The position numbers and the translations under genes are program-made. A stretch of DNA of 64,000 nt, taken from assembly GCA_016699085.1 (NCBI GenBank), contig CP064958.1, positions 668,619 through 732,618 of the forward strand, written 5' to 3'. The notes under the pieces were generated by a model. The model did not search any database, was not told the DNA's origin, and saw nothing but the letters and a program-made list of their open reading frames with translations. This document shows positions 5,267 to 63,469 of the stretch, in pieces. This DNA comes from Candidatus Nomurabacteria bacterium. Its GTDB lineage: Bacteria > Patescibacteriota > Minisyncoccia > Phycocordibacterales > UBA9973. The stretch's first letter is position 1, and the number at the start of each line of letters is the position of its first letter.

Positions 5267-5272
5267 CTAACC

Positions 5273-5301
5273 AAAAAACATCCCGATTCGGGATGTTTTT
5301 T
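5273..5301. terminator. bidirectional rho-independent terminator
   Basis: CATCCCG-att-CGGGATG flanked by A-run and T-run, between convergent dnaK and oxidase genes. Confidence 0.7.
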
Positions 5302-5318
5302 GTTATGTAGCAAGAACG

Positions 5319-7268: not shown

Positions 7269-7290
7269 CCCGCCTATAATTTTTCTAAAT

Positions 7291-7554
7291 ATGCATTATG
7301 TTTATATTTTACAAAGCAAGAAAGATCGAGATTTATACACTGGCTGCACTAAAGATTTAAAGGAAAGGATGAATCTACATAATGCTGGCAAAGTACCATC
7401 AACAAAATTACGTAGACCATTTATGCTTATTCATTACGAAGCTTTTATAAATAAAACTGATACATTTGCCAGAGAACAGTGGTTAAAAACTGGTTGGGGT
7501 AGAAACCATTTACGAAAAGTTTTATTCAATTATTTAAAAAATTATGGCGGGTAA
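7291..7554 (+). CDS. GIY-YIG nuclease family protein
   Basis: 87 aa; YVYIL..LYTGCT..RMNLHN..G motif of GIY-YIG/Slx1-like small nucleases. Confidence 0.75.
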   Translation: MHYVYILQSKKDRDLYTGCTKDLKERMNLHNAGKVPSTKLRRPFMLIHYEAFINKTDTFAREQWLKTGWGRNHLRKVLFNYLKNYGG

Positions 7555-9281: not shown

Positions 9282-9294
9282 GCTTTATAAAATA

Positions 9295-9329
9295 CAGAAA
9301 AATCCCAGCTGTTAGCTGGGATTTTTCTG
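9295..9329 (+). terminator. rho-independent terminator
   Basis: CAGAAAAATCCCAGC-tgtta-GCTGGGATTTTTCTG hairpin with T-run. Confidence 0.75.
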
Positions 9330-9345
9330 TATTTTATGGTATAGT

Positions 9346-10431: not shown

Positions 10432-10486
10432 ATAGCTAGCAATATACCTCGATCAAATCCGCCTCATCAAATGTAATTCCTCTAAT

Positions 10487-10517
10487 AAAAAATCCGACCA
10501 ATTTGGTCGGATTTTTT
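10487..10517. terminator. bidirectional terminator
   Basis: TCCGACC-aattt-GGTCGGA between A-run and T-run, between convergent dnaJ and cysS. Confidence 0.75.
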
Positions 10518-10524
10518 ATTTTGT

Positions 10525-14993: not shown

Positions 14994-15102
14994 CCCGTAC
15001 GAAATTAAAAACTAATAAAATTATTCCTGTTTTTCTTTTGTCCCATAATAACAAAAATCCTCCTAAACTTTATCTTTTTATAATTTCGTATGGGATTCAT
15101 AA

Positions 15103-16503
15103 TTAAAATATATCATTAGATGAATCAGAACTTCTTTGTGTCTGCTGTGAAAAAGATCCCATATTGCCTTTTTCAATAGGTAAGAATGTTGAAAGCTTTT
15201 CTTCAAAATATAGTTCAACCTTCCCAGTAGGTCCATTTCTGTGTTTTTCAATTAAAATCTCTGCAATATTAGTCCTCTCAGATTCATCTTTGTACTTATC
15301 TTCACGGTGGATAAACATAACAACATCGGCATCCTGCTCGATAGAACCAGAATCTCGTAAATCAGAAAGTCTTGGTTTGCCACCGCGAGCTTCGATCGCA
15401 CGAGATAACTGAGAGAGGGCAAGGACTGGTACATCGAGATCTCGGGCGAGACTCTTGAGAGAGCGTGAAATCTCTGTTACTTGATTAACCATAGAATCAT
15501 AATTCTTAGAGGTCGTCATGAGCTGCAAGTAGTCGATAATAATAAGTCCAAGTCCATGTTCACTTTTGAGTCTTCTCGCTGTTGCGCGCATATGCATGAT
15601 TGAGTTGCCAGCCTGATCGTCGATATAGATAGGCGCCTTTGATAACTTGTCGAGAGCATCGCGAAGCCTTGAAAATTCATTATCGGTACTAAGTTTGCCA
15701 GTACGAAGATTCCAAGCATTCACTTTTGATTCAGCTGCAAGCATACGGTCAACAAGCTGTTGTGCGCTCATTTCAAGTGAGAAAATACCAACTGGAATAT
15801 TATGAGTTGTTGCAGCCATGCGAGCAATATCAAGCGCTAGTGTTGTTTTACCGATTGATGGACGAGCAGCCAAAATAATAAGATCTGACTTTTGGAGTCC
15901 AGCAAGCATACTATCCAAATCTGCAAAACCAGTCGGTATGCCGCGAAGTTCACCGCTTGTCCCATGGAGTTTCTCTATTCGCTCCCATGCACCACTTAAG
16001 GTCTGCTTGATACTAATAAACTTCTTGCCTTTTGATGAGCCAGTAATACTGAAGAGTCTTTTTTCAGCACGATCGAGTATTTCTTCGACAGGCTCTGTCG
16101 ATTCTTCAAATCCAGTCGCTGACACATCATCGCCAGCACTAATAAGTTCTCGAAGAATATATTTTTTCTCAACAATATCTGCGTAGTGCTTTAAGTTCGA
16201 AGCAGAAGGTACTTTGTCTATAAGTTCCGTAAGATAACTGTTACCGCCAACTCGCTCAAGTAGATTTTTTTCAGTTAAGATTGTTGAAAGTGTTAGAAGG
16301 TCAATAGGTTGGCTTTTAAGTGATAACTCGAGCATAGCATCAAAAATCAATCGGTGTCGCTCACTATAAAATGAGTCCGTAGAAATCGCATCAGTGACAT
16401 CGAGTAACCCACCTGGGCGAATAAGGATTGATCCAAGTACCGCTTGTTCTGAGTCTAGGCTTTGCGGTGGCAATCTCAAGGATGGTTTTTTAGGTGATGA
16501 CAT
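15103..16503 (-). CDS. dnaB: replicative DNA helicase DnaB
   Basis: N-terminal DnaB domain (LPPQSLDSEQAVLGS), Walker A ARPSIGKTT, RecA-like C-terminal domain. Confidence 0.95.
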   Translation of the reverse strand: MSSPKKPSLRLPPQSLDSEQAVLGSILIRPGGLLDVTDAISTDSFYSERHRLIFDAMLELSLKSQPIDLLTLSTILTEKNLLERVGGNSYLTELIDKVPSASNLKHYADIVEKKYILRELISAGDDVSATGFEESTEPVEEILDRAEKRLFSITGSSKGKKFISIKQTLSGAWERIEKLHGTSGELRGIPTGFADLDSMLAGLQKSDLIILAARPSIGKTTLALDIARMAATTHNIPVGIFSLEMSAQQLVDRMLAAESKVNAWNLRTGKLSTDNEFSRLRDALDKLSKAPIYIDDQAGNSIMHMRATARRLKSEHGLGLIIIDYLQLMTTSKNYDSMVNQVTEISRSLKSLARDLDVPVLALSQLSRAIEARGGKPRLSDLRDSGSIEQDADVVMFIHREDKYKDESERTNIAEILIEKHRNGPTGKVELYFEEKLSTFLPIEKGNMGSFSQQTQRSSDSSNDIF

Positions 16504-17694: not shown

Positions 17695-19512
17695 ATGGAT
17701 AAACCAAAAGCATTATTCTCACGCTCGCTTTTATTTTTTAAGCCATTTTGGAAGTACATAGCAATAGTATTTTTTATGATGGTTATTGGGCAGGCTGCTG
17801 CTACTTTTTCACCATTTTTATTCGGGAAAAGCGTGGACGCTGTAACTCATAATAACATCACTCTTGCCTTCAAATATATTGGTGGCGCATTTTTGTTGGC
17901 AATTTTTCAATCAAATGTCTTAGTATGGATTAGAGAACGAATCGAAATTGCTTTTCTTGATGATCATGTCGATAAAGCATTCTCACTTAATTCAATGGGA
18001 AAAATGTTTGCTTTTTCAATTGGACAGCATGTTAATGAACACTCCGGTGTAAAACAAAGTATTGTGAATAAAGGCCAAAATGCATTAACGCAACTTATGT
18101 ACAATGCGTTGTATAATATTGTCCCGAATATTTTGCAAGTGCTTGTAACACTGGTAATACTATTCTTTTTTGACTGGCGAATCGCAGCGGTTGCTTCAAT
18201 TTTTCTTTTTACTTACATCTATATTTCCTATAAACGAAATCAAGGGTTTTTACCCAGCATTCAAGAAATTAGAAAGAAAAATCAGGCTCAATCAAAATTG
18301 CAATCTGAATTATACAGAAACGCAACATTAGTCATCGCTGAAGCTCAAGAAAATGAAACGTTGTCATTCTTTAAGAAAGCGGCGGATACAATTACAGATT
18401 ACTCAACAAAGACATGGTTCCATTACTTGACAGTCTTTTATAGTCATAAAACATTAATTCTTTTCGGTCAGTACATATCGCTTGGTTTTGGTGTTTATTT
18501 GATAATCATCGGAGAACATTCAGCGGGTATGTTTGTTACGTTTTATGCATGGACGAACTCAATATTCTCTAACTTAATTATGATCATGAATTCTCAAAGG
18601 CAAATACTGATGCAGGTAGCAGATATTAAGAAGTTTTTTGATTTATTAAATATTACTCCAGATATAGATCAAAATGTAAATGGAAAAATTATTGAACAGT
18701 TCTCAGGTGAAATTAAATTCACTAATGTAAGCTTCGCATATCCTTATAGAATGAATCAAGAAGAAGCTGACAAGGCAGAAGATTTAAATGAGGTAGCAGA
18801 TGAGGAAAAGGATGAGGATCATGCAATTACAAATGTTAGTTTTACTATACCTCCGGGCGCTAAGGTTGGCTTTGTAGGTCAATCAGGGTCTGGTAAATCA
18901 ACAATAGTAAATCTACTACGACGTTACTATGACCCAACAATTGGAGAGATATTCGTTGACAATATAAACCTTAAAGAGCTAAACCTACACTGGTTTCGTT
19001 CTCAAGTTGGTAATGTTGAACAAAAAATTGAACTCTTTGACCGAAGTATAAAAGACAATATTTTATTTGGAATGTCAGATAATAAAAAAGTAAGCAATGA
19101 AGAACTCTTGCAGGTAGTTCACGATGCATCGTTAGATGACTTTGTAGTAAAACTTAAGGGTCATGGCCTTGATACCCTCATTGGAGAAGCAGGAATTAAA
19201 GTTTCTGGGGGAGAAAGGCAGAGAATCGGTATAGCGAGAGCTTTAATCAAGAATCCTAAAATTCTTATTTTTGATGAAGCCACTAGTGCACTTGATTCTG
19301 TAAATGAGAAACTAATTCATGAGGCAATCAATCGAAGCGCTGAAGGAAGAACGACAATCATAATCGCACACAGGCTTTCAACAGTAATGGATGCCGATAT
19401 TATTTTCGTGGTAGCAGAAGGAAAAATTGTAGCACAAGGTACACATGAGGAATTGCAAAAAAATTCCCTAGACTACCAAAAACTTCTTAAAAATCAAATT
19501 GTTGCTATATAA
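17695..19512 (+). CDS. ABC exporter, fused permease/ATP-binding protein
   Basis: six N-terminal TM helices; Walker A GQSGSGKST, LSGGERQR signature, Walker B ILIFDEATSALD. Confidence 0.9.
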   Translation: MDKPKALFSRSLLFFKPFWKYIAIVFFMMVIGQAAATFSPFLFGKSVDAVTHNNITLAFKYIGGAFLLAIFQSNVLVWIRERIEIAFLDDHVDKAFSLNSMGKMFAFSIGQHVNEHSGVKQSIVNKGQNALTQLMYNALYNIVPNILQVLVTLVILFFFDWRIAAVASIFLFTYIYISYKRNQGFLPSIQEIRKKNQAQSKLQSELYRNATLVIAEAQENETLSFFKKAADTITDYSTKTWFHYLTVFYSHKTLILFGQYISLGFGVYLIIIGEHSAGMFVTFYAWTNSIFSNLIMIMNSQRQILMQVADIKKFFDLLNITPDIDQNVNGKIIEQFSGEIKFTNVSFAYPYRMNQEEADKAEDLNEVADEEKDEDHAITNVSFTIPPGAKVGFVGQSGSGKSTIVNLLRRYYDPTIGEIFVDNINLKELNLHWFRSQVGNVEQKIELFDRSIKDNILFGMSDNKKVSNEELLQVVHDASLDDFVVKLKGHGLDTLIGEAGIKVSGGERQRIGIARALIKNPKILIFDEATSALDSVNEKLIHEAINRSAEGRTTIIIAHRLSTVMDADIIFVVAEGKIVAQGTHEELQKNSLDYQKLLKNQIVAI

Positions 19513-19544: not shown

Positions 19545-19752
19545 AAGCATATCTAATGATCCGTTGACAGCGGGGAAGATGGAGTCAAATCTCTCGGGAA
19601 AGCCCGTTATAGCTAGGCTAAAAGCCGAAATGAGTTTCACCTGCCAACATTTTCAAAATTTGCGGCAGGCATGAAGTAGGGTGGCACCGCGATCAAAAAT
19701 CGCCCCTGCGAATTTACTAGTAATGTAAGTTCGAAGAGGCGATTTTTGTTTC
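19545..19752 (+). promoter_or_regulatory. T-box riboswitch leader (Asp, specifier GAC) of aspS
   Basis: T-box sequence AAGTAGGGTGGCACCGCG at 19673-19690; terminator AAAAATCGCC...GGCGATTTTTG (19695-19748) whose 5' arm can alternatively pair with the T-box; candidate specifier UUGACA at ~19563-19568. Confidence 0.75.
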
Positions 19753-19756
19753 CTCT

Positions 19757-21070
19757 TTGAATCAAAATAATATGATTCAAGCAAAACATGTCAGTGACCT
19801 AAAAAGTGAAGTTGGAAATGAAGTTATTATCCAAGGTTTCGTGCAAACACTGCGCGTACAGAGTAAAATTATTTTCCTCATTCTTCGAGATGTGACCGGT
19901 ATCGTACAAAACATTATTGAAGCAAGTGTCCCAGATGTATTTGAGACTGCAAAGACACTTTCTCATGAATCTGTGGTACGAATCACTGGTGTTGTCAAAG
20001 AAGCGGCACAAGCGCCTGGAGGATTCGAGCTTGGTGTAAATAGTATTGAGGTGCTTTCTGTTGCAAATCCAGAACTACCAATACCTATTGTCGTGAAGGG
20101 AAGTGATGAAGAATCAGAAGCGCCAACGAGATTTGATTATCGCTGGATTGATCTTCGTAAGCCTGAAAAAACAAAGATATTTAAAGTTTGGACAACACTT
20201 GAGAAAGGTTTCAGAAAATACTGGGACGAGAACAATTATATGCAAGTGTATTCACCGTCATTCATGTCGACACCGTCTGAGACAGGCGCAGAAGTATTCG
20301 AAGTAAAATATTTTGATCGCAAAGCATACCTTGCCCAGTCGCCACAATTCTACAAACAAATGGCAATTGCTTCTGGTTTCGAGCGAGTGTTTATTGCAGG
20401 GCCTGTGTTTCGAGCAGAGGAATCATTTACCTCAAGACATCTCACCGAATTTACCGGTTGGGACTTTGAACTGGGATTTATCGACTCACATCATGACGTC
20501 ATGGATCAAGAAGAAGGCATGCTTGTTGCAGGATTTGAAGCAGTATCTCAAGCATTCCCGGAGCTCGGTGTTATTGTGCCAAAACGACCATTCCCACGAA
20601 TTACGATGCTAGAAGCTAAAAAAATACTATCTGGGTTAGGCGTTTCAAGTGCCGAAGACTATGATCTATCACCAGAAGAAGAACGAGTAATGAGTGACTA
20701 TGTGAAAAAGGAATTTGATCATGAATTTGTCTTTATCCATGAATATCACAAAAGCAAGAGTGCGTTTTATCATATGAGACTCGAAGAGAGTAGTGACTAT
20801 TCGAGACGCGCAGACTTACTTTTCCGTGGCATAGAAGTTACAACACTTGCACAGCGTGAGCATCGAATTGAAATCCTAGAGCAACAGGCAAAAGATAAAG
20901 GCATGAGCCTCGAAGCACTTAAAGATTACTTGAATTTCTTCCGTTATGGTGTACCACCACACGGCGGTGCTGGCATAGGCCCAGGACGACTTATTATGAA
21001 GCTCTTGGATCTTCCAAATGTGCGAGAAGCAACGTACATCCCACGTGATGTAAAGCGATTGAATCCGTAA
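19757..21070 (+). CDS. aspS: aspartate--tRNA ligase, archaeal/type-2
   Basis: 437 aa class II; FRAEESFTSRHLTEF motif 2; C-terminus PPHGGAGIGPGRL...YIPRDVKRLNP like type-2 AspRS. Confidence 0.85.
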   Translation: MNQNNMIQAKHVSDLKSEVGNEVIIQGFVQTLRVQSKIIFLILRDVTGIVQNIIEASVPDVFETAKTLSHESVVRITGVVKEAAQAPGGFELGVNSIEVLSVANPELPIPIVVKGSDEESEAPTRFDYRWIDLRKPEKTKIFKVWTTLEKGFRKYWDENNYMQVYSPSFMSTPSETGAEVFEVKYFDRKAYLAQSPQFYKQMAIASGFERVFIAGPVFRAEESFTSRHLTEFTGWDFELGFIDSHHDVMDQEEGMLVAGFEAVSQAFPELGVIVPKRPFPRITMLEAKKILSGLGVSSAEDYDLSPEEERVMSDYVKKEFDHEFVFIHEYHKSKSAFYHMRLEESSDYSRRADLLFRGIEVTTLAQREHRIEILEQQAKDKGMSLEALKDYLNFFRYGVPPHGGAGIGPGRLIMKLLDLPNVREATYIPRDVKRLNP

Positions 21071-21089: not shown

Positions 21090-21130
21090 TTAATTCAATC
21101 CCGTAATTTTGCAAAATTACGGGATTGAAT
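21090..21130. repeat. 40 bp perfect palindrome containing two inverted copies of motif ATCCCGTAATTTTGCAAAA
   Basis: AATTCAATCCCGTAATTTTGCAAAATTACGGGATTGAATT; same 19-mer recurs at 62014 and 62299. Confidence 0.8.
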
Positions 21131-21172
21131 TTGATATAACATGTCACAATAAATGGTTGTGGATAACTTTAC

Positions 21173-21201
21173 TTGACTAAAGAACTTTAGTTTGCTAAAG
21201 T
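21173..21201 (+). promoter_or_regulatory. putative promoter with internal palindrome ACTAAAGAACTTTAGT
   Basis: TTGACT-17nt-TAAAGT; near-perfect palindrome at 21176-21191 overlapping the spacer. Confidence 0.4.
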
Positions 21202-21531: not shown

Positions 21532-21549
21532 TGCGTGTCGTATGAAGCT

Positions 21550-21581
21550 AACCCCCTCCTTGTTTGGAGGGGGTTGTTTTT
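21550..21581 (+). terminator. rho-independent terminator
   Basis: AACCCCCTCC-ttgttt-GGAGGGGGTT followed by GTTTTT. Confidence 0.8.
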
Positions 21582-21702
21582 ATTCACAGTAAAATTTTTA
21601 CTATGAGATTTCCAAGCATTACTTGTTCTTTCGGTGGATCACTAGGCGGTGCCGGTGTACACCTTAACCAAAGCGAGGAGACAAGTATTCTCCTCGTTAT
21701 AT

Positions 21703-21777
21703 GGTCTCCGTAGCTCAATAGAAGAGCGCTTCTTTGTGGAAGAAGTGGCTGAGGGTGCAAGTCCCTTCGGAGACCCA
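21703..21777 (+). tRNA. tRNA-His (anticodon GTG)
   Basis: manual cloverleaf: G-1 plus acceptor GTCTCCG/CGGAGAC, U8, D-arm GCTC-AATAGAA-GAGC, anticodon arm CTTCT-TTGTGGA-AGAAG, T-arm GAGGG-TGCAAGT-CCCTT, discriminator C. Confidence 0.85.
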
Positions 21778-21795
21778 CGCAAAATTTGCGTATAT

Positions 21796-22701
21796 ATGAG
21801 TTACAAAAATAATAAAAAGAAAAAGAATTTTCTTAATCAACTGAACCGTCAAGTTGTGCTGATTAGGATTGCGCTTTTAAAAAAGTACTCATTGTTCATT
21901 CAAAAAAATAAACTAACTATGCAACAACGACAAACAACAAATACTATGCAGTGGCTCCGTGATCAGTGTAAAATGGTTCGAAGTAATAATATGCGTATTA
22001 GTGATTGGGTAGATACTTATATTGATTCCTGTATTGAAAACGGGAAACCAATCGAATTATTAACGCAGTATTGCCTATCTAAGGACCTAGAAAAACGGTA
22101 CCAGTTGCAAGGTAATCAATTTATACCTTTGCAAGCAGAAATAAAACTTTTTACTAAAGAAATACCCCGAATTATGGATATATTTGCAAGTAATAATATA
22201 TCGGTGAATTGGTTTGTTACATTTAATGATTCGTTTATTGAAAAAGGTAGAGTTGACGTAAGTATAGCTAATGCATATATCGTTATGATTAGTAACATTC
22301 AAGAAAATAAGAATATTATATTTCTCAATTGGGAAAAAGATATTCTCTGCGATCGCCCAAGACCAAGCGAAGTTGTACTAGGAGATTTTTTCAGCTATGT
22401 AACACGCGATGCATACAACATCGCAATGAATGATCTTGTAAGTCGAACTGAAAAATTTTCTGACTTTGACGAAATTAAATCCGGTTTTGCAGAAGGGTTG
22501 CAGTTTAAAATTGCATGCGAAGCAGAAGAGGGTAGATTCTTAATCGAAGAAAAAGTAGGTATGTTCGATGATCCAGGTAAATTCATTTTGGTGCCATTAG
22601 AACTCCCTGAAAGATATGTATTCTTCAATACTCTTGTACCTGATTTTCAAAAAAGAATCGTACCAATATTGAAGCCATATCCATGGCGAATAAATTCATA
22701 A
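21796..22701 (+). CDS. hypothetical protein
   Basis: ~300 aa ORF beginning after tRNA-His; no recognisable domain; ORF-track start 21649 rejected because it overlaps the tRNA. Confidence 0.5.
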   Translation: MSYKNNKKKKNFLNQLNRQVVLIRIALLKKYSLFIQKNKLTMQQRQTTNTMQWLRDQCKMVRSNNMRISDWVDTYIDSCIENGKPIELLTQYCLSKDLEKRYQLQGNQFIPLQAEIKLFTKEIPRIMDIFASNNISVNWFVTFNDSFIEKGRVDVSIANAYIVMISNIQENKNIIFLNWEKDILCDRPRPSEVVLGDFFSYVTRDAYNIAMNDLVSRTEKFSDFDEIKSGFAEGLQFKIACEAEEGRFLIEEKVGMFDDPGKFILVPLELPERYVFFNTLVPDFQKRIVPILKPYPWRINS

Positions 22702-31256: not shown

Positions 31257-31454
31257 GATTCCTAAGTTTTGCTTCTATCTGCTGGTACAAAAATGAAGGT
31301 CCAAGCTATATGCATTAAATAGCTTTTTTGCAGCAGCGCGTGGCAGGTAAGAACCTTTCATTAATCTAGTATACATAGATATAAATGCAAGGTATATGTC
31401 GTAAAAGATATATTGTGCGACATATAGATATTTATTCCCTCTACTAATATAAGA

Positions 31455-61987: not shown

Positions 61988-62011
61988 AGTGATACTTAGA
62001 AAAAGTAAGTA

Positions 62012-62287
62012 TTATCCCGTAATTTTGCAAAACTTCAGTATAGCAATTCCCTTGGTTGTTAATCCATGCCGAATTGATCTGCCGTCTGAACGTTTCATTA
62101 TAAGTCCTGTTTGCGCCAACTTGCGAATATGATCAGATATAGTATTAAAATTTACATTAAGTGACTTTGCAATTTCATCAACTGATAGTTCTGGAGTTTT
62201 GGCAAGTAAAAACAGAATTTCAATACGTCGATGATTTGCAAATCCTTTGAATGTACGTTCAAGTTTATAATAATCTTTTTGTTGCAT
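62012..62287 (-). CDS. ArsR/SmtB family transcriptional regulator
   Basis: 91 aa; HRRIEILFLLAK...LSVDEIAKSLNVNFNTISDHIRKL wHTH. Confidence 0.8.
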   Translation of the reverse strand: MQQKDYYKLERTFKGFANHRRIEILFLLAKTPELSVDEIAKSLNVNFNTISDHIRKLAQTGLIMKRSDGRSIRHGLTTKGIAILKFCKITG

Positions 62288-62317
62288 ATATAGTATCTTA
62301 TACCAACATTTTGCAAA
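62014..62317. repeat. 19 bp perfect inverted repeats bracketing the ArsR gene
   Basis: ATCCCGTAATTTTGCAAAA at 62014-62032 (encodes the ArsR C-terminus FCKITG*) and its reverse complement at 62299-62317 (12-30 nt upstream of the ArsR start). Confidence 0.85.
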
Positions 62318-62375
62318 ATTACGGGATAAGGAATGCTTTAAAATTTAAATTTACAATTTCCAAAAGAAATAAACA

Positions 62376-63068
62376 TTATAATGCTTGCAACTCTTGAATC
62401 GTTTCTTGGATATCAATACTTTTCCAGATTGCAGATCCTACCACCAACCGATTTGCTCCCGCTTTGACAAGCATTGGTGCAGTATCGAAACTAACCGCTC
62501 CATCAACACTGATAGTCAAATCATTATACTTTTCTCGAAGCGTACGAATATGTCCCAAAACTCGCTCATCGAAAGCTTCACCTTGGAAACCGTCATGTTC
62601 GATCCCCATGCATTGCACGAAATCAATATGCGGCGTCAATGGGAAAATTTTCTCTATAGGTGTTCGTGTATCGATTGACACACCGATTTCGATATTATCA
62701 CGTGTGTATATATCGATACCTTCGAGTACATCACGAAATGCATTATCAGTATTATCTTCAGCTTCCAGATGGAATACTAATCGCTTGGCTCCCAATGCTG
62801 TGAATGCTGGAATCTGACCACTTGCTCCTGCTACCATAAGATCAAATTCAAAATCAAACTGATCCCAATACGGCAAACCTTCTTCTTCCGCTATGATGCG
62901 TTCGTAGTATGTAGCGTCTTCTCCGTTGTACGGCCAGGTTATCGCTTTGACGAATTTGCCATCCATGAGATCAACCTGCACAGAATCAACTAGCCCCAAC
63001 ACAAGCGCGAGCTTTTCGCGAATATCATTGATATTTGTTGGCATTATTGCCGGAATAATGGTTACCAT
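62376..63068 (-). CDS. rpe: ribulose-phosphate 3-epimerase family protein
   Basis: IIPAIM, VDLMDGKFV, VDGAV...VVGSAIW align with Rpe motifs; contains a ~25 aa insertion. Confidence 0.6.
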   Translation of the reverse strand: MVTIIPAIMPTNINDIREKLALVLGLVDSVQVDLMDGKFVKAITWPYNGEDATYYERIIAEEEGLPYWDQFDFEFDLMVAGASGQIPAFTALGAKRLVFHLEAEDNTDNAFRDVLEGIDIYTRDNIEIGVSIDTRTPIEKIFPLTPHIDFVQCMGIEHDGFQGEAFDERVLGHIRTLREKYNDLTISVDGAVSFDTAPMLVKAGANRLVVGSAIWKSIDIQETIQELQAL

Positions 63069-63469
63069 TTGTTTTTTTCTAGTTCTATGTTTTCTAAAAT
63101 TTTTTCCTTACTATAAATACTTGATTGTATAAGCAAAGCAACTTCTCTTGCATCATCATATCTTTTGAGATCGATAAATTCTGTTGCTAATATGTCCAAC
63201 CAATAATCCAGTGTACTTAGGTTACCCCTCAGCTCAGGCGGAAGAGAAAGTATCGAGGTTTGCCAATCTTGCTTTATTTCATCTCCTAAGTTTGGATATG
63301 CATCTTTAAGGTTTTTTACCATTTCAAGCGCTTTATCATAATCTTTTGCTTTTACAATCTCTGCTATTTCTCTACCCGCTCTCCAAAATCGGCCTAGTGC
63401 CTCATCTTCTATGTGTACTATTTTCTCTTTTTCATTAATATCTTCAGGAGACATATTATTTTTTATCAA
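63062..63469 (-). CDS. hypothetical protein
   Basis: 135 aa, helical/charged, no recognisable domain. Confidence 0.4.
   Translation of the reverse strand: MIKNNMSPEDINEKEKIVHIEDEALGRFWRAGREIAEIVKAKDYDKALEMVKNLKDAYPNLGDEIKQDWQTSILSLPPELRGNLSTLDYWLDILATEFIDLKRYDDAREVALLIQSSIYSKEKILENIELEKNKW

Follow-up and report, generated by a model that had tools for sequence, protein, structure and literature searches.

ArsR/SmtB regulators like CzrA, SmtB, CadC, HlyU and NolR are autorepressors that recognize a two-fold symmetric site, usually of 12-2-12 layout, overlapping the promoter of their own gene. Their family is associated with Cys-X-Cys ligands in helix alpha3 or His/Asp ligands in helix alpha5, and with adjoining genes for efflux or metallothionein. 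Auxiliary operators inside coding sequence, lac O2 in lacZ and gal OI in galE, allow repression loops. In REP/RAYT systems (REPtrons) a gene coding for a Y1/HUH transposase lies between inverted palindromes, which are found in tens to hundreds of copies. Other small repeated elements are MITEs and remnants of the solo-LTR type, and Rickettsia palindromic elements insert in frame into genes. To our knowledge, Patescibacteria have very few transcription factors and no regulon has been defined in them. A literature search on the ArsR-like family presented here, on regulators of CPR bacteria and on palindromic elements in CPR bacteria found nothing relevant.

The window, meaning the whole 64-kb stretch of DNA that was analysed, carries a perfect palindrome between aspS and yerC, and an ArsR-like gene bracketed by related sequences. 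The features needed to follow the argument are:

19637-19669, forward strand: hairpin of 33 nt occupying the stem III position in the T-box leader of aspS; close relatives lack it
19757-21070, forward strand: aspS, coding for a non-discriminating AspRS (NCBIfam, 455 bits)
21092-21131, no strand assigned: solo box, AATTCAATCCCGTAATTTTGCAAAATTACGGGATTGAATT, a perfect 40-bp palindrome in the aspS-yerC spacer
21173-21201, forward strand: yerC promoter/operator, TTGACTAAAGAACTTTAGTTTGCTAAAGT, conserved in relatives whatever lies upstream
62008-62047, reverse strand: 3' box of the ArsR-like gene, within its last ten codons (profile score 29.9 bits)
62012-62287, reverse strand: ArsR/SmtB-type winged-helix gene coding for 91 amino acids (NF033788)
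62294-62333, reverse strand: imperfect palindrome 5' of the ArsR-like gene, its upstream box (profile score 28.1 bits)

The palindrome is composed of two 20-nt arms without spacer, as the first-pass annotation had recognized, although at 21090-21130, a figure 2 nt off. It starts 21 nt (previously counted as 20) after the aspS TAA codon at 21068-21070 and ends 41 nt (previously about 45) before the TTGACT -35 hexamer of yerC at 21173, which places its end 76 nt and its centre ~96 nt 5' of the yerC ATG (21208), not over the promoter. The NCBIfam match of AspRS and the assignment of the downstream product to YerC/YecD, a TrpR-like protein (TIGR02531), bear out the neighbours proposed earlier. In 60 simulations of the window with a first-order Markov model, the longest perfect arm had a mean of 8.3 nt and a maximum of 11 nt, so that chance is no explanation for an arm of 20 nt. 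The hairpin predicted from the palindrome is stable (-22.8 kcal/mol, z = -6) and is the sole one from the aspS stop to yerC. The 19-mer ATCCCGTAATTTTGCAAAA occurs exactly four times in the window: two copies stand head-to-head in the palindrome, one per half (21098-21116, forward; 21107-21125, reverse), and two at the ArsR-like gene (62014-62032, forward; 62309-62327, reverse). The link between the palindrome and the flanks of the ArsR-like gene is therefore exact, as first proposed. A profile of 12 boxes (nhmmer) finds only three sites in the 64-kb window, and the solo box is the best of them with 32.3 bits (E = 5e-9). Further along the window, a tRNA gene at 21704-21775 (Rfam, 60.6 bits) lies within a long mechanical ORF (21649-22701); a real protein gene there must thus begin 3' of the tRNA.

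The 91-amino-acid protein scores 56.4 bits against NF033788 (NCBIfam cut-off 55). Its AlphaFold model (pLDDT 86.8), with the fold order alpha1-alpha2-alpha3-alphaR-beta-beta-alpha5, superposes over its full length on CzrA, SmtB, CadC and HlyU (TM 0.87-0.89). Fold and family match are thus those of the ArsR/SmtB autorepressors, and as in these, a site with two-fold symmetry extends over the inferred promoter of the regulator gene: by eye, an extended -10-like motif, TGGTATAAG, lies within the gene-proximal arm of the upstream box, 9 nt before the ATG. The differences are several. Neither the Cys-X-Cys motif in alpha3 nor the His/Asp ligands in alpha5 were found in the protein, whose single Cys is residue 87; no efflux or metallothionein gene adjoins; the boxes measure 28-48 bp instead of the usual 12-2-12; an obligatory second box lies in the codons of helix alpha5, and solo copies are found far from the gene. 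The window's 3' box encodes ILKFCKITG*, corresponding to helix alpha5 of the model (helix 78-90); its centre is 16 nt before the stop codon end, and it finishes 25 nt 5' of the ATG of the PIF1-helicase gene (61987). The 19-mers earlier said to bracket the gene are present, but as outer halves of two complete though imperfect palindromes, of which one falls within the coding sequence. These outer halves are perfect inverted repeats (window, 19-21 nt; locus L035, 19/19), while the inner halves are degenerate; joining the outer halves hence yields a perfect palindrome. In the same gene cluster, a 135-amino-acid ORF (63062-63469) between rpiB and rpe overlaps both by a few nucleotides. It gave no match in Pfam or PADLOC and is missing in the relative L095, where the rpiB-rpe gap is 23 nt, and so represents a second small lineage-specific gene in the cluster that hosts the ArsR cassette.

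The box-gene-box arrangement was compared in eight loci of different Patescibacteria, those of the window and of seven homologues 56-76% identical to its protein (L035, L038, L041 and L083-L086). The window itself comes from a Patescibacterium, and all named homologues belong to Parcubacteria-type lineages. Each regulator gene has two boxes (8/8 loci), one at the promoter and one at the gene 3' end. The centre of the upstream box lies 25-48 nt before the ATG in the eight loci and, as judged by eye, the inferred promoters have -10-like motifs in or adjoining its proximal arm, mostly 4-9 nt 5' of the ATG. In seven loci the 3' box belongs to the final ten codons, those of helix alpha5, and its centre is separated from the stop codon end by exactly 16 nt. 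The exception is L083, whose second box (7269-7325 of that locus) is just 3' of the stop codon and is divided by a GC-rich hairpin, the 20-bp palindrome CCTGCCTGCCGGCAGGCAGG. The CCTGCC...GGCAGG ends of this GC-rich palindrome also close the hairpin in the T-box leader of the window. Box length varies from 28 to 48 bp across loci, with 23/24 pairs in L085, and the two box centres of a locus are 286-332 bp apart. An ORF that holds a second operator copy, some hundreds of bp away from the one at the promoter, recalls lac O2 and gal OI; unlike in those systems, this ORF is that of the regulator itself and the second site keeps the same codon position throughout the family, and looping here is speculative. 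Three of the eight loci are hosted by sugar-phosphate (pentose-phosphate/glycolysis) clusters, namely rpiB/rpe/tkt in the window and L035, and pgi/6PGD in L041.

The sequence of the box varies by lineage and both copies of one locus change together. Its centre is TTTTGCAAAA in the window, L035, L038, L084 and L086, TTCTTGAGAA or TTCTCAAGAA in L041 and L085, and TTCCGCGGAA in L083. Identity between the two boxes of a locus is 0.70-0.93 in six of the eight loci versus a between-locus mean of 0.55; the low values of L083 (0.35) and L084 (0.57) stem from a script that compared other sequence there. Since the 3' box is coding, the carboxyl-terminal tail of the protein reports the box sequence. The centre TTTTGCAAAA, read as the tail FCK, pairs with a Lys in the recognition helix and TTCTTGAGAA, read as FLR, with an Arg. 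Among 114 proteins whose recognition helix is readable, the recognition-helix residue following His-Ile-Arg and the tail combine as K-FCK in 54, K-FLK in 8 and R-FLR in 49, with 3 exceptions; the pairing thus holds in 111/114 proteins but follows three clades in which independent events are not countable. This co-variation resembles co-evolution of a protein with its site, and could also be phylogenetic inertia. Together with the conserved architecture and the overlap with the promoter, it makes the box a likely binding site of the ArsR-like protein. The operator of a dimeric regulator suggested by the first-pass annotation is in line with a family whose loci always come with such boxes, even if protein binding is predicted from sequence and the solo box is outside the promoter/operator of yerC.

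Close relatives give the history of the solo box. Four contigs (L087-L090), with YerC 95% identical to that of the window, keep the order tyrS/trpS - ABC transporter - aspS - yerC - scpA with ~90% nucleotide identity over 20.5 kb. Their aspS-yerC spacer measures 105 nt versus 137 nt in the window; the place of the palindrome is taken by an unrelated 11-pair hairpin, AGTAAGATTGCC-TAGTTTT-GGCAATGTTACT, also without T-tract (-14.4 kcal/mol for the 71-nt stretch folded). The ArsR-like gene is missing too at the syntenic junction of relative L095, whose rpe product is 94% identical: its genes run rpiB-rpe-PIF1 helicase, and the rpe-helicase spacer of 105 nt holds a hairpin terminator with 26-bp arms. 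No ArsR homologue more than 78% identical to that of the window was found, though other proteins of relatives are 94-95% identical. The contigs devoid of the solo box (L087-L090) and the one devoid of the ArsR-like gene (L095) come from different assemblies, and joint absence in one genome is unproven. Judged from this synteny, the solo box between aspS and yerC is not ancestral and represents a recent, lineage-specific acquisition, which agrees with the earlier suggestion of an empty repeat site. A perfect 40-bp palindrome is implausible by point mutation in the time since divergence and must have been copied in; acquisition by copy-and-paste is thus very probable.

Besides a replaced allele of the ABC transporter, only three structural differences are found in the 20.5 kb of synteny: the aspS-yerC spacer, the 33-nt hairpin of the T-box leader and a 107-bp element between dnaB and recR. 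All three involve inverted-repeat sequence with shared motifs. The 107-bp insertion, MITE-like and found once in the window, is located at 14994-15103 between the dnaB stop and the recR start. Inverted repeats (CCCGTACGAAATTA.../...TAATTTCGTATGGG) form its termini, ATTCAT is duplicated, and its end has ATCCCGTA in common with the box. The element is absent in L087 and in the outgroup L092, where the dnaB-recR gap is 3 nt. The ABC-transporter gene (17695-19512) is ~52% identical in DNA to its L087 counterpart, both flanks being ~90% identical, a divergence that looks like allelic replacement by recombination.

The leader of aspS (19547-19750) is a real but atypical T-box, with an Rfam score of 39.6 bits (E = 8e-7 in a 1.8-kb search; gathering score 93). 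The T-box sequence AGGGTGGCACCGCG and the terminator/antiterminator are intact, and stem I is cut down to a short hairpin, CCG-TTGACAG-CGG, whose loop has GAC, an Asp codon (by eye). We found no literature on T-boxes in CPR bacteria. The core of the 33-nt hairpin, CCAACATTTT-CAAAATT, matches the upstream box of the ArsR-like gene at 17/18 positions, one central base missing. The degenerate copy noted in the first-pass annotation inside this leader does exist, at 19644-19665 and not at 19653-19674. With a core of 18 nt only and a centre 1 nt shorter, it appears unlikely to be a working site. The outgroup L092 is unalignable here, and the indel fits an insertion in the window as well as a deletion in the relatives.

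Exact 18-mer scans of 596 Gb of genomes and of a metagenome collection, both without the window's own genome, gave 74 loci. Nearly all are chance single matches and only L008, L014 and L059 extend as palindromes. In L008, a Saccharibacteria MAG with one exact copy overall, a perfect 40-bp version exactly fills the 41-nt gap between convergent genes. L014 has a 28-bp core with 1 mismatch (2239-2266) 5' of dnaE, on a 3.5-kb contig of 47% GC labelled Lentisphaeria, which denotes either mis-binning or cross-phylum transfer. In L059 a 38-bp version with 2 mismatches (828-865) lies in frame within a tsaC/yrdC-like gene and encodes IIYPVILQTYRIDL; in the alignment, the TsaC-like protein is 4-5 amino acids longer there than the solved TsaC/Sua5 structures, an excess too small to prove a clean insertion. 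No ArsR homologue is found next to these three copies in the DNA stored for these loci. Among the regulator loci, a third box was found in L041 at a distance of 600 bp from the regulator gene; it immediately follows a canonical terminator and precedes the next gene by ~100 nt. L084 has one extra box just past the stop codon, and no further boxes were found within +/-10 kb at L083, L085 and L086. A scan of viral contigs for the motif gave 0 matches, tblastn of the ArsR-like protein against phages and plasmids found just generic ArsR proteins 32% identical, and PADLOC returned generic wHTH matches only. Nothing in these searches points to a phage, a plasmid or a defence system as the origin.

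Several known types of site were considered for the palindrome. Rfam assigns no RNA family to it at the gathering threshold, nor a T-box, and at the E-value threshold yields just spurious miRNA-precursor matches, typical of long hairpins. Like intrinsic terminators, the palindrome is a stable stem-loop just past a stop codon; unlike them, its stem is AT-rich, its sequence is shared with the flanks of a regulator gene and it has no U-tract. The terminator scan, which asks for at least 5 T in the 8 nt directly after the stem, does not call the solo box, whose tail is TGATATAA, and calls a yerC terminator at 21549-21576. Canonical terminators with A-tract, stem and T-tract are found in the window, for example at 9287-9337, 10484-10520, 5272-5302 and 21549-21576. 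A canonical intrinsic terminator was thus rejected, in accordance with the doubts first expressed about a pure terminator role. A resemblance to the CodY box (AATTTTCWGAAAATT versus AATTTTGCAAAATT) was set aside on the length of the centre. The sign of the GC skew changes at ~31-32 kb, where gene orientation is convergent, indicating that the window spans the replication terminus. Sites of the parS type are grouped around the origin and recognized by ParB-family or other partition proteins; a parS-type centromere is discarded on account of this location and of the lack of a partition NTPase beside the ArsR-like gene, none being found in any locus read. A dif/Xer site, considered for the 11-6-11 layout of the palindrome core, does not suit three copies with a symmetric centre, and a better dif candidate is found at 31393-31426: the imperfect palindrome TATATGTCGTAAAAGATATATTGTGCGACATATA, located in the spacer of the convergent genes and conserved in L087 (20185-20218), is a candidate dif/Xer site at the terminus.

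The yerC gene has its own control region. Its promoter/operator, TTGACT-17-TAAAGT with an internal palindrome CTAAAG.ACTTTAG, stands directly before the ATG. The motif TTGACTAAAG(A/T)ACTTTAGTT(T/A)G(C/A)TAAAGT, which starts 41 nt past the palindrome, is conserved in all relatives, and the region is nearly identical in L087, L091 and L092 despite different upstream genes. It is probably the autoregulatory site of YerC on a leaderless or near-leaderless mRNA. The solo box was not retained as a part of this operator, the separate motif being conserved in relatives without the palindrome, and it neither overlaps nor adjoins the promoter of the gene to be regulated.

We lean, with some caution, to the explanation that the palindrome is a solo copy of the box of the ArsR-like regulator, serving as an extra binding site and as a 3' hairpin for the aspS message. 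Two of its rivals, a hairpin independent of any protein and a palindrome without function, partly overlap with it. According to the former, the palindrome would act as an RNA hairpin at the aspS 3' end, as a weak or non-canonical terminator or as a 3' stabilizer, and its identity to the ArsR box would reflect the copy source only. Its position 21 nt past the stop as the only hairpin before yerC, its stability, the unrelated hairpin also lacking a T-tract that relatives have at the same place and the L008 copy filling the gap between convergent genes all agree with such a role, which we nevertheless hold unlikely: the palindrome lacks a T-tract in a genome that uses canonical terminators, the solo box of L041 is redundant after a canonical terminator, and the fact that the spacer received a perfect, best-scoring version of the ArsR box is left unexplained. 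The G-U bias of mismatches in imperfect boxes (1/4) is based on too few cases to inform on a role at the RNA level. Direct activation or repression of the yerC promoter by the ArsR-like protein from a distal operator is the least probable of these alternatives. The palindrome precedes yerC, with 41 nt between it and the -35 hexamer, an extended -10-like motif seen by eye (TGATATAAC, 21132-21140) adjoins its right arm, and the L041 solo box is likewise ~100 nt 5' of a gene; against this stand the yerC promoter/operator, conserved and self-contained in relatives without the box, the distance of the box centre from the ATG, and the copies of L008 and L059, which have no downstream promoter.

A selfish or neutral mobile palindrome without function at this place, either a minimal MITE-like element consisting of nothing but its two terminal inverted repeats or a solo-LTR-like remnant of an ArsR cassette whose boxes recombined with loss of the gene, is a possible though doubtful reading, slightly more probable than the protein-independent hairpin. 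The solo box is lineage-specific and the ArsR-like gene is missing at the syntenic junction of a similarly diverged relative; joined outer halves of the ArsR boxes give a perfect palindrome; copies are found in unrelated contexts (convergent genes, a Lentisphaeria-labelled contig, in frame in tsaC); and the structural differences in the synteny (3/3) involve inverted repeats with shared motifs. Abutting terminal inverted repeats, lineage-specific presence and the in-frame copy of L059 recall MITEs, solo-LTR remnants and the Rickettsia elements. The palindrome departs from MITEs in its 40 bp, shorter than known ones, and in its very low copy number: three sites in 64 kb, none extra around L083, L085 and L086, and a single exact copy in the L008 MAG. 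No target-site duplication is recognizable; a fully palindromic element would hide one in its arms and the flanks of relatives are unalignable. A scan of ORFs in the 32-64-kb part of the window found no transposase or integrase. A gene flanked by inverted palindromes and stand-alone palindromes at gene 3' ends, with possible hairpins, are reminiscent of REP/RAYT, but here the flanked gene codes only for an ArsR/SmtB winged-helix DNA binder and not for a Y1/HUH transposase, the second palindrome is part of the coding sequence, and copy number is again far from that of REP sequences. That the cassette encodes a DNA-binding fold only, and that its homologues are in pentose-phosphate/glycolysis clusters at three of the eight loci, which suggests a regulatory role, argue further against a selfish element.

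In the favoured explanation, that of an extra regulator site and aspS 3' hairpin, the ArsR-like protein would bind as a dimer to the box, or as a pair of dimers to its 38-48-bp versions, and repress its own, almost leaderless, promoter through the upstream box. The 3' box, at a distance of 286-332 bp, might act either as an auxiliary operator, by looping, or as a roadblock, both speculative. Copy-and-paste would have brought the solo box into the aspS-yerC spacer, in the lineage that also has the cassette; one possible route is that the boxes of a second cassette recombined, joining their outer halves into a perfect palindrome. There it would provide an additional site for the ArsR-like protein, the strongest as judged from its match, and bound protein and the 18-20-bp RNA hairpin may together limit read-through from the T-box-controlled aspS into yerC, taking over the role of the unrelated hairpin found in relatives. 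The solo box of L041, directly after a canonical terminator, indicates that solo boxes are not just terminators. On the other side, near-perfect boxes of 40-48 bp are longer than the typical ArsR/SmtB operators, the L008 copy is in a terminator-like, promoter-less position and that of L059 inside a tsaC-like ORF, and close relatives with another hairpin at the palindrome position imply that a hairpin alone may suffice there.

A broader and decidedly unlikely proposal, to which we give a little more credit than to the distal operator, is that box-gene-box forms a self-propagating unit of Patescibacteria with a catalytically inert winged-helix protein, REPtron-like in layout without the transposase. 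Such a unit would move between intergenic slots and shed solo palindromes into gene 3' ends, RNA leaders (stem III of the T-box) and coding regions, where they would then be co-opted as hairpins or extra binding sites.

We could not find an earlier description of the conserved bracketing of a regulator gene by two boxes, the second in the codons of helix alpha5, together with stand-alone copies. This family-wide architecture is a more interesting result than a single palindrome resembling a binding site. It offers a candidate protein-site pair, a 91-amino-acid protein and a 28-40-bp box, in a family found across Parcubacteria-type lineages. Because the putative binding site of the regulator codes for its last helix, the sequences of protein and site are physically coupled. 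Between close relatives with such near-minimal genomes, structural differences are few and consist of small palindromic insertions, an observation that bears on the origin of regulatory sites and RNA hairpins.
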